In this document: positions 38,251-38,531 of the stretch, one piece after another | How positions within the stretch are numbered: position 1 is the first letter of the stretch | How the letters are laid out: the number at the start of each line of letters is the position of its first letter | Notes under the pieces: model-generated | What the model was told of the DNA's origin: nothing | Databases searched by the model: none | What the model saw: only the letters and a program-made list of their open reading frames with translations | Sequence record: PP175015.1 | Direction: 5' to 3' (one strand) | Source of the DNA: Escherichia phage UE-S5a | DNA: 64,000 bases | Made by a program: the position numbers and the translations under genes

Positions 38251-38290
38251 CAAATAAAAAAGTCCCCCAGAGTGACGGCTCCAGGGGACT
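38251..38290 (-). terminator. rho-independent terminator (minus strand) downstream of tRNA array
   Basis: AGTCCCC...GGGGACT stem followed on minus strand by TTTTTTATTTG. Confidence 0.5.
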
Positions 38291-38531
38291 TAGTACTATT
38301 TACCCATAGCTGGGAGGCTTTTGGTTCTTACCACGAAGACAGTCCACGCTGACTAGACTTGGGATTGATAGTCCCGTTCCTGTGGTAATTACTCAGGCTA
38401 GGATTTAAGGAGTTCCTATTCTCCAGCGAAATTCCCGTCGAGGGGAATAACAATACAATAGCAGTCACTGGACTGTCTTACCAGTGTTGTCTTTAGAGTG
38501 CGATGCAATCAGGACTATGTTACTGCTGAAT

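Follow-up and report, generated by a model that had tools for sequence, protein, structure and literature searches.

Since T4, phage tRNA clusters have been known to encode small stable RNAs. In T4, RNAC and RNAD lie in the tRNA gene cluster, are transcribed together with the tRNAs and are processed from a precursor. To our knowledge, none of these tRNA-cluster RNAs has an assigned function, and few have been defined as families. T4 RNAC and RNAD are small RNAs whose function is still unknown (PMC9697503). Theta ribozymes, minimal ribozymes resembling that of hepatitis delta virus (HDV), occur beside tRNA genes in Caudoviricetes and have been proposed to act in tRNA operon maturation (PMC10879173), and an intergenic cluster of small RNAs (sRNAs) of unknown function was detected by ONT-cappable-seq in the Pseudomonas N4-like phage LUZ7 (PMC9163698). 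Here we describe an RNA element at positions 38283-38530 of a 64,000-nucleotide (nt) stretch of Escherichia phage UE-S5a (PP175015.1), referred to below as the window. This region is exactly the gap from a tRNA-Ile gene to an intrinsic terminator, and it is probably the last gene of a minus-strand operon of tRNAs and tRNA-like RNAs of about 1.9 kb. The stretch is rich in hairpins and is a genuine non-coding RNA, conserved and located where the tRNA operon ends. Its core belongs to an RNA family that Rfam lacks, and in phage tRNA arrays it behaves as though it were one more gene. We consider the chance about even that the element is the gene of a small stable RNA, which would be processed out of the tRNA operon and act in trans.

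Structure of the core

In the RNA sense, the core reads GCAGU-AACAUAGUCCU-GAUUGC-AUC-GCACUC-UAAAGACAA-CACUGG-UAAGACAGU-CCAGUG-ACUGC and forms a three-way junction of helices P1, P2 and P3, with a pseudoknot between the junction strand J1/2 and the P3 loop, L3 (Table 1). The strands J1/2, J2/3 and L3 were nearly invariant while P1, P2 and P3 covaried. In phages of the ECBP1 type, all five P1 pairs were swapped (GCAGU/ACUGC to UAGAG/CUCUA) together with three P3 pairs, and N4 and the Klebsiella phages had changes at other core pairs. A first alignment of 23 sequences showed changes on both sides in 11 of 21 pairs, which 0 of 500 shuffles reached. In an alignment of all types (24 sequences, with two rows, L166 and L170, partly misaligned), 93.4% of the cells were paired and 15 of the 20 core pairs had changed on both sides; again 0 of 500 shuffles reached these values, and slid controls were 21-42% paired. 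P1 was 100% paired in this alignment, with 3-4 pair types per position. RNAalifold independently recovered P1, P2 and P3. The length of P1 was 5-6 bp in the N4-like type of coliphages and 10-13 bp in EP_H11, phiEaP8 and the loci L163 and L171.

The central pseudoknot pair was C-G in 12, U-A in 10 and G-C in 1 of the 24 sequences. The pseudoknot was further supported by the change from U-A to C-G in the Klebsiella phages and by additional G-C and A-U variants. Minimum-free-energy folding of the single sequence paired GUC of J1/2 with GAC of J2/3 instead. This pairing was rejected because the change of GUC to GCC in Klebsiella phages was accompanied by a change of GAC to GGC in L3, not in J2/3; in locus L137, J2/3 itself changed from GAC to GGC without compensation.

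The strand follows from two observations. At its innermost position, P1 had a U·G pair in 12 of the 24 sequences, which would be a C-A mismatch on the other strand; this fixes the minus strand for the RNA. The element also fills the gap from the tRNA-Ile gene to a minus-strand terminator, and thus is read in that direction. A covariance model of the core, R1, scored 98.7 bits on the window (E = 8e-32) and found one copy in 64 kb.

The sequence-only reading of this DNA had proposed a structured RNA next to the tRNAs, to be checked by folding, by covariation in related phages and against Rfam. The minus-strand RNA folded better than shuffled sequences (z = -3.56; 0 of 200 shuffles folded as well) and the covariation was present and strong, while no Rfam family matched the core. 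Two local hairpins pointed out by that reading, ATTCCC/GGGAAT (38431-38448) and CACTGG/CCAGTG (38466-38486), proved to be P4 (see below) and P3, respectively, both of them real helices backed by compensatory changes.

Distribution of the core

A blastn search of 50,697 phage records found the element in 91 records with 75-100% identity, belonging to the genera Gamaleyavirus, Moovirus, Kaypoctavirus and Enquatrovirus; N4 shared only the region corresponding to window positions 38459-38527. Approximately 20 more distinct sequences were obtained by pattern scans of IMG/VR and metagenomes. In every annotated genome, the element was downstream of the tRNA cluster, upstream of the terminator and before the N4 gp48-side genes. 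The N4-like phages carrying the core infect Escherichia, Shigella, Klebsiella and Erwinia. With R1, divergent cores were found in two places, both syntenic: an environmental N4-like contig (L120/L131) and Erwinia phage phiEaP8, in which the model hit starts 9 nt after tRNA-Tyr and P1 begins to pair 11 nt after the tRNA-Tyr end given by ARAGORN.

A wider search was made with a degenerate pattern and a rebuilt model, R2; the cores that it found had a related consensus, GUCAUGCCCUG, the P2 hairpin, AAAAGAC and P3 with the loop UAAGGUACU. In contig L171, the core lies inside an array of 13 tRNAs, 10 nt after tRNA-Ala. The core was also present in L160 and L170, the latter in a tRNA array, and in L163 and L150 a terminator follows 8-20 nt downstream of it; in N4, the terminator comes after the core, P4 and P5. 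The core stops 20 nt short of tRNA-Arg in Pseudomonas phage nickie (Nickievirus, 112 kb), and 15 nt short of tRNA-Met in two phages of E. coli, EP_H11 (111 kb) and vB_EcoM_IME392 (116 kb, unclassified Caudoviricetes). AU-rich spacers of a length similar to that in the window part the core from the neighbouring tRNAs elsewhere (L171, L123, L176). Later core queries gave core matches only in phiEaP8, Fifi051, EP_H11, IME392 and nickie; Erwinia jumbo phages gave weak partial matches of 28 nt (E = 0.8). Each window or locus searched had one copy. The core was not found in L141-L148 or in Salmonella phages of the TR2 type (distant Schitoviridae, located by the gp46 RuvC-like anchor).

The core of EP_H11 was 86% identical to that of phiEaP8, an unrelated Erwinia N4-like phage, and this indicates that the core has moved horizontally between unrelated phages. 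The core is an autonomous RNA gene family, and its members lie either within tRNA arrays or shortly before a terminator. It was detected neither in 185,579 bacterial and archaeal species, searched as one representative genome each with the exact core pattern and then R1, nor by blastn in 5,426 complete E. coli genomes. On these negatives, a host or prophage origin was rejected.

The distances from tRNAs bear on the idea that the core is a new self-cleaving ribozyme cutting the polycistronic tRNA transcript beside a tRNA, which we hold to be unlikely. A ribozyme would suit its size (~66-80 nt), its variable peripheral helices around ~20 invariant junction and loop nt, its pseudoknot and, in several unrelated phages, its location 5-15 nt away from a tRNA end, and the theta ribozymes provide a precedent for phages placing cis-cleaving RNAs beside tRNAs (PMC10879173). 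However, there is one core copy per window or locus, even in the 13-tRNA array, so the core cannot be a general processing device, and it does not adjoin a called tRNA in N4, L150 and L163. The theta ribozymes also lie within ~1 nt of a tRNA 3′ end, compared with a gap of 5-9 nt here, and a J1/2-L3 pseudoknot in a P1-closed junction is unlike the HDV-like, twister, hammerhead, pistol and hatchet ribozymes, none of whose Rfam models matched at E <= 10. An HDV-like or theta assignment was rejected on the helix order, P1-[P2]-[P3]-P1′ with the J1/2-L3 pseudoknot, and on the absence of a hit to any HDV-family model; stand-alone copies have only ~15-20 nt after P1′ and are therefore too short for P4 and P2′ of HDV. 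By inspection, the core does not fit the hammerhead in sequence or topology.

Distances from the terminator bear likewise on control in cis, in which the element would be a riboswitch-like attenuator or a put/EAR-like antiterminator that tunes terminator read-through into the gp48/gp49-side genes; we regard this as improbable. In Enquatrovirinae and phiEaP8, the element is always upstream of a strong terminator with a co-oriented gene within ~35 nt, its junction is aptamer-like, and terminator read-through that changes with time is a prominent feature of the N4-like phage LUZ7 (PMC9163698). Weak Rfam hits were to attenuator leaders only, though the terminator itself drives them. On the other hand, some tRNA arrays contain the core without a following terminator (L171, L176, L177), its distance from the terminator varies from ~60 to >200 nt with swappable inserts, and the genes downstream are not the same from phage to phage. 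Inspection gave no conserved alternative (antiterminator) pairing, L059 is a natural variant without the terminator, and Salmonella phages have the terminator module without the core. Membership in a riboswitch or attenuator class was rejected on the varied spacing, the varied downstream genes and the existence of copies that no terminator follows. We continue to prefer the reading as the gene of a small stable RNA; the modules accompanying the core are described next.

Downstream hairpins and exchangeable modules

The full composite RNA is approximately 270 nt (38526..38252), as compared among ~35 distinct homologues. The sequence-only reading had expected an RNA of 130-150 nt; the structured RNA beside the tRNAs is indeed conserved, lies on their strand and ends at the terminator, but the size has to be revised upward. 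The comparison shows that the element is a composite of at least two separable modules.

The P4 site had a hairpin in every lineage, with at least 4 unrelated stems (AUUCCC/GGGAAU, GUCCA/UGGAU, CAUAC..GUAUG and CAUACC/GGUGUG), and the P5 stem was GGAG/CUCC, AGUG/CACU or GAGCA/UGCUC depending on the lineage. An alternative P5 fold with an outer GCUGGA/UCCUAGC helix was rejected, as it is not kept in the G7C and N4 types. The unpaired stretch that follows contains GCCUGAG, which was also found in Salmonella and Erwinia phages. Beyond it lies a Y-shaped module, for which at least 8 sequence-unrelated versions were seen, each with a long stem, P7 and a second hairpin. All 4 pairs of the P7 stem showed changes on both sides (0 of 500 shuffles reached the score), and its heptaloop CUAUCAA has the format of an anticodon loop (C-U-NNN-A-A). 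The pre-terminator block, with the consensus CAAGCCUCCCAGCUAUGGGUAAAUAGYACUAAG followed by the terminator, was present in 48 phage records, among them those of N4-like phages that infect Salmonella and Erwinia. The hairpin motif of the block, CCCAGCUAUGGGUAAAUAG (RCUAU-GGGUAA-AUAGY), was also seen in unrelated environmental viral contigs (L114, L115/L118/L119, L116 and L121); L114 has three tandem variants of the hairpin at ~242-330, after an nrdA-like gene, with a compensatory change from G-C to A-U in the stem.

Lineages differed in the modules that they carry. N4 has the core, P4, P5 and the terminator only; the Y module is missing from N4 and from the metagenomic variant L061, and variant L059 has neither block nor terminator. 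Conversely, Salmonella phage TR2 has the Y module without the core, and the Salmonella Triduovirus phages have a tRNA array, a 58-amino-acid (aa) open reading frame (ORF), a Y module or simple hairpin, the block and the terminator, with no core. The 58-aa ORF of the Salmonella N4-like phages (MRYIKMN..RSERRAASR..) is conserved and arginine-rich, and stands where coliphages carry the core, between the last tRNA and the terminator-proximal module (L088 3151-3327 minus; L112, L113, L117 and L122).

Such exchange bears on the reading of the element as a passive processing or stability trailer of the tRNA operon, functionless in itself and later degraded. The element is placed like a 3′ external spacer that runs up to a terminator, its modules are freely swapped and deleted (L059, L061, N4), and RNase E removes terminator trailers as a unit (PMC5291269). 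Passive spacers, however, do not retain ~20 invariant unpaired nt together with a pseudoknot that covaries across phage families; between N4 and the window, no sequence of the region is more conserved than the core, and the core has been transferred between unrelated phages. We judge a passive trailer to be improbable, to the same degree as control in cis, and continue to favour a small stable RNA with its own function.

Long-range inverted repeat

Two stretches had been noticed in the sequence-only reading as exact reverse complements enclosing the local hairpins. They are exact and, after small corrections of the coordinates, longer than had been claimed: AAGACAGTCCA and TGGACTGTCTT, 11 nt each. 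When 38250-38540 was shuffled 2000 times with its dinucleotides preserved, 0.7% of the shuffles contained a perfect inverted repeat of at least 11 nt, and 13% one of at least 9 nt, the length originally quoted. The arm at 38469-38479, which comes first in the RNA, comprises most of L3 and part of the P3 3′ strand, and its partner at 38336-38346 is inside the swappable Y-shaped module.

On this complementarity, an RNA of 130-150 nt closed by a long-range helix GACAGUCCA/UGGACUGUC had been modelled. The rarity of an 11-nt perfect complement in shuffles favours it, as does its persistence in the KP8 type as a version with two G·U pairs. Nevertheless, the exact complement of GACAGUCCA was present downstream only in the UE-M3/IME11 type (2 of 33 distinct homologues), and among these 33 the complement was not found in N4, G7C, ECBP1, Moo19 and other types. 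Forcing the long-range helix on the window RNA costs ~4 kcal/mol, and its pair probability was 0.09 compared with 0.88 for P1 and P3. It also competes with P3, P8 and P6, which are backed by covariation or by parallel architectures. Given the few homologues with the complement and the energy cost, the long-range complementarity is lineage-specific and is not the conserved architecture; possibly, the helix is an alternative conformer. An RNA closed by it is very improbable, far more so than the small stable RNA built on the P1-closed core.

Genomic setting

The window belongs to an N4-like podophage of E. coli related to G7C, Bp4, ECBP1 and IME11 (Gamaleyavirus, Schitoviridae), and 2.1 kb around the element was 100% identical to Escherichia phage UE-M3. 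An ORF-poor minus-strand stretch of ~1.9 kb extends between the gp47 homologue and the gp48-side genes. The terminator is kept in the homologues, is annotated as such in G7C and PhAPEC7, and presumably marks the tRNA/RNA operon's 3′ end. Positions of all features are listed in Table 1.

Table 1. Positions in the window of the RNA element, its parts and the neighbouring features
Feature	Position	Strand	Description
Core motif	38461..38526	minus	66 nt; three-way junction P1/P2/P3 with pseudoknot
P1	38522-38526 with 38461-38465	minus	closes the junction
P2	38505-38510 with 38496-38501	minus	variable hairpin
P3	38481-38486 with 38466-38471	minus	6-bp hairpin, 9-nt loop (L3)
Pseudoknot	38513-38515 with 38475-38477	minus	3 bp; GUC (J1/2) with GAC (L3)
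P4	38431..38448	minus	hairpin AUUCCC-CUCGAC-GGGAAU
P5	38409..38424	minus	hairpin GGAG-AAUAGGAA-CUCC
Conserved unpaired stretch	38392..38408	minus	UUAAAUCC..GCCUGAG; links element A (core) to element B (terminator-proximal)
Y-shaped module	38328..38388	minus	swappable
P6	38378-38388 with 38328-38339	minus	long stem
P7	38361-38375	minus	hairpin, invariant heptaloop CUAUCAA
P8	38341-38359	minus	hairpin
Pre-terminator block	38289..38322	minus	AAAAGCCUCCCAGCUAUGGGUAAAUAGUACUAAG; contains hairpin RCUAU-GGGUAA-AUAGY
Intrinsic terminator	38291..38260, through 38252	minus	13-bp stem, 6-nt loop, U run
Inverted repeat arms	38336-38346 and 38469-38479		AAGACAGTCCA and TGGACTGTCTT; 11 nt, 100% complementary, 122 nt apart
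Spacer	38527..38534	minus	CCCAUUCA; 8 nt, from tRNA-Ile discriminator base (38535) to P1
tRNA-Ile(AAU)	38531-38609	minus	ARAGORN and Rfam
Second, odd tRNA	38615-38690	minus	ARAGORN and Rfam
46-aa ORF, GTG start	38328..38468		only listed ORF; not conserved in frame among homologues
gp48-side genes	from ~38226 downwards		
N4 gp47 homologue	40608..41051		
Virion RNA polymerase	26677..37047	+	3456-aa ORF; genes to its right on the minus strand

Several further observations were made around the operon. The anticodon AAU of the phage tRNA-Ile is unusual, and for the tRNA at 38615-38690 ARAGORN gives only a 2-nt 'anticodon', while GenBank labels are tRNA-Cys or tRNA-OTHER. Bidirectional terminator-like hairpins were seen at 37053-37076, where the virion RNA polymerase gene converges with the minus-strand genes, and at 37603-37623, between the gp49-like and gp48-like genes. 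The RNA cluster is a mosaic, with blocks common to N4, KP8, G7C and TR2 in differing combinations; its modules at 38892-38980 and 39312-39447 were 97-99% identical to the N4 locus (L002), and the flanking gp47 gene was ~77% identical.

Several tRNA-like elements not called by ARAGORN or Rfam were recognised by eye at ~39000-39530 on the minus strand. One, at ~39447-39525, combines acceptor stem, D arm and T arm with a broken anticodon arm; in another, at ~39325-39392, a 7-bp acceptor stem is joined by the T arm UCUGG-UUCGAGU-CCAGA and an encoded ACCA, and only ~31 nt lie between. Further GGUUCGA T-arm motifs are near 39215, 39085 and 39010. A stretch resembling the tag-coding part of transfer-messenger RNA (tmRNA), at 39619-39721 (minus), reads GCA AAC GAU GAU GUU GUU CUG AUG GCA GCC UAA UAA; it encodes ANDDVVLMAA followed by two stops, and a T arm is downstream at 39456-39472. 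It scored 32.7 bits with the Rfam model tmRNA_permuted, under the gathering score of 47, and ARAGORN called no tmRNA; 39718-39619 was 95% identical to Salmonella phage TR2, of another genus. In N4 (L002 ~2570-2700) and KP8 (L009 ~2745-2830), the core is closely preceded, on the minus strand, by a tRNA-like element, and the T-loop variant of this element, UAAGAAU (GUUGG-UAAGAAU-CCAAC) resembles the start of the P3 loop (GG-UAAGACAGU-CC).

Comparison with known RNA classes and coding potential

No family of Rfam 15 (4227 models) matched the core at E <= 10, either in the window (3.3 kb, 291 nt) or in the L171 copy. These scans, and one of the whole window at the gathering threshold, gave nothing but tRNAs and leader hits due to the terminator. 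Sub-threshold hits were to His_leader, trpB, Phe_leader, PyrR and similar families, all terminator-driven and none over 38461-38526, and in the homologous regions of 7 phages only the tRNAs matched Rfam. Neither ARAGORN nor Rfam gave a tRNA hit at E <= 10 in 38250-38530 or in the core of L171. The idea of a tRNA mimic with stacked acceptor and T arms was weakened by the 10-13-bp P1 of EP_H11, phiEaP8, L163 and L171. A ToxI-like type III antitoxin was rejected, as the element is a single copy in the window, forms no tandem array and is flanked by tRNAs and small genes. In the literature, no description was found of the core RNA, nor of RNAs at this locus in E. coli N4-like phages.

Whether the stretch could instead be a small protein gene or a DNA element, such as an origin or promoter hairpins, was weighed on the coding and substitution patterns. 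The 46-aa ORF listed in Table 1 and a 58-aa coding sequence (CDS) annotated in the homologous stretch of Bas96 speak for a gene, and N4 virion RNA polymerase promoters, which are DNA hairpins, for a DNA element. But stops occur in every frame on both strands, the longest stop-free stretch in the element being 49 codons, and no reading frame was common to the homologues, in which loops carry 1-nt indels; a protein-coding gene was rejected on this lack of in-frame conservation. Substitutions keep the base pairs, including U·G pairs possible on one strand only, and the pseudoknot. The pre-terminator block was considered as a repeated promoter and rejected, being single in 64 kb. A protein gene or DNA element is thus the least probable of the explanations considered, and we return below to the small stable RNA.

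Annotations across the element can be corrected accordingly, as several GenBank records place spurious small CDSs across it. In public annotations (Bas96, L005, at 2542-2718; L010), the non-coding RNA region is covered by hypothetical CDSs and, in OY978778, by rIIA/rIIB labels that are apparently shifted.

Proposed role

For the element, the fold, strand, conservation, modularity, association with tRNA arrays or terminators, single copy in the window and in each locus searched, horizontal spread and absence from Rfam and bacterial genomes are established. If it is a small stable RNA gene, the core RNA would be transcribed together with the tRNAs, and host tRNA-processing nucleases would release it by cutting the short AU-rich spacers. 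Release by host nucleases is plausible because RNase E takes trailers off E. coli tRNA transcripts whole, terminator included (PMC5291269). The 5′ end would be shielded by P1 and the 3′ end by the terminator hairpin; the freed RNA could then accumulate as a small stable RNA and work in trans, with the invariant pseudoknotted junction as a putative surface that a protein, RNA or small ligand would specifically recognise.

Several points weigh against this proposal. Co-transcription, processing sites and stability are all inferred from the sequence, and no candidate binding partner was identified for the core. A 5-13-bp P1 combined with a high-information junction would equally mark a ribozyme or aptamer. 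A strong terminator and co-oriented genes always follow the element in N4-like phages, so that it may affect transcription in cis. As to the structural evidence, the alignment behind the final counts was fitted to the model, and many of the aligned sequences are close relatives; therefore, the independent substitution events are fewer than the cell counts suggest. More tentatively, and with clearly less confidence than we place in a small stable RNA, the 66-nt core could be a new catalytic or ligand- or protein-sensing RNA class (a self-cleaving ribozyme, or a trans-acting decoy for a host tRNA-directed enzyme or defence) spreading horizontally among unrelated virulent phages, including N4.

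The core is useful in that it has a covariation-backed fold and aptamer- or ribozyme-grade information, is present in the model phage N4 and offers evidence of horizontal transfer. It is a tractable way into the role of the non-tRNA genes in phage tRNA arrays, and the resulting covariance model could be submitted to Rfam.

Comparison with known systems

Cis-acting antitermination and attenuation RNAs (HK022 put, EAR and riboswitches) are structured, have conserved unpaired nt and stand upstream of a terminator. The element is likewise structured, with conserved unpaired nt, before a terminator and co-oriented genes. It differs from them in its stand-alone cores without a terminator, in the lack of a conserved expression-platform pairing and in its varying downstream genes.

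With tRNA-like domains (tmRNA, viral), the core shares the size of a tRNA and a place in tRNA arrays. Its P3 3′ strand meets the P1 3′ strand with 0-1 nt between, as a T stem meets an acceptor stem, and its tertiary pairing of loop and junction is at the position of the tRNA elbow. Unlike these domains, it has no T-loop or D-loop consensus and no CCA, and its P1 is of 5-13 bp rather than 7.

The sRNAs from the 3′ external transcribed spacers (3′ETS) of tRNA operons, such as 3′ETS-leuZ of E. coli, are released by tRNA 3′ processing and can act in trans. Like these and the trailers removed by RNase E, the element is the stretch from the last tRNA to an intrinsic terminator. The 3′ETS sRNAs, however, work with Hfq by way of short base-pairing seeds and have no conserved tertiary core, whereas the phage core also occurs in mid-array without a terminator.

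Theta ribozymes resemble the core in being compact, pseudoknotted and located beside tRNA genes. Theirs is a nested double pseudoknot (P1, P1.1, P2, P3, P4) with a catalytic C and a cleavage site at the ribozyme's 5′ end, in contrast to the P1-closed three-way junction of the core, and they were found in gut phages of Bacteroidota and Bacillota.

The core agrees with T4 RNAC and RNAD in location: it is encoded on the strand of the tRNAs, either inside a phage tRNA cluster or where the cluster ends. The blastn matches of the element among the 50,697 phage records were to N4-like phages only, with none in T4-like phages, and thus there is no detectable sequence similarity to RNAC or RNAD. The core also differs in being a defined pseudoknotted three-way junction common to several phage families, and while expression is proven in T4, the core is known here from sequence alone. 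In context, T4 RNAC and RNAD are its closest precedent.

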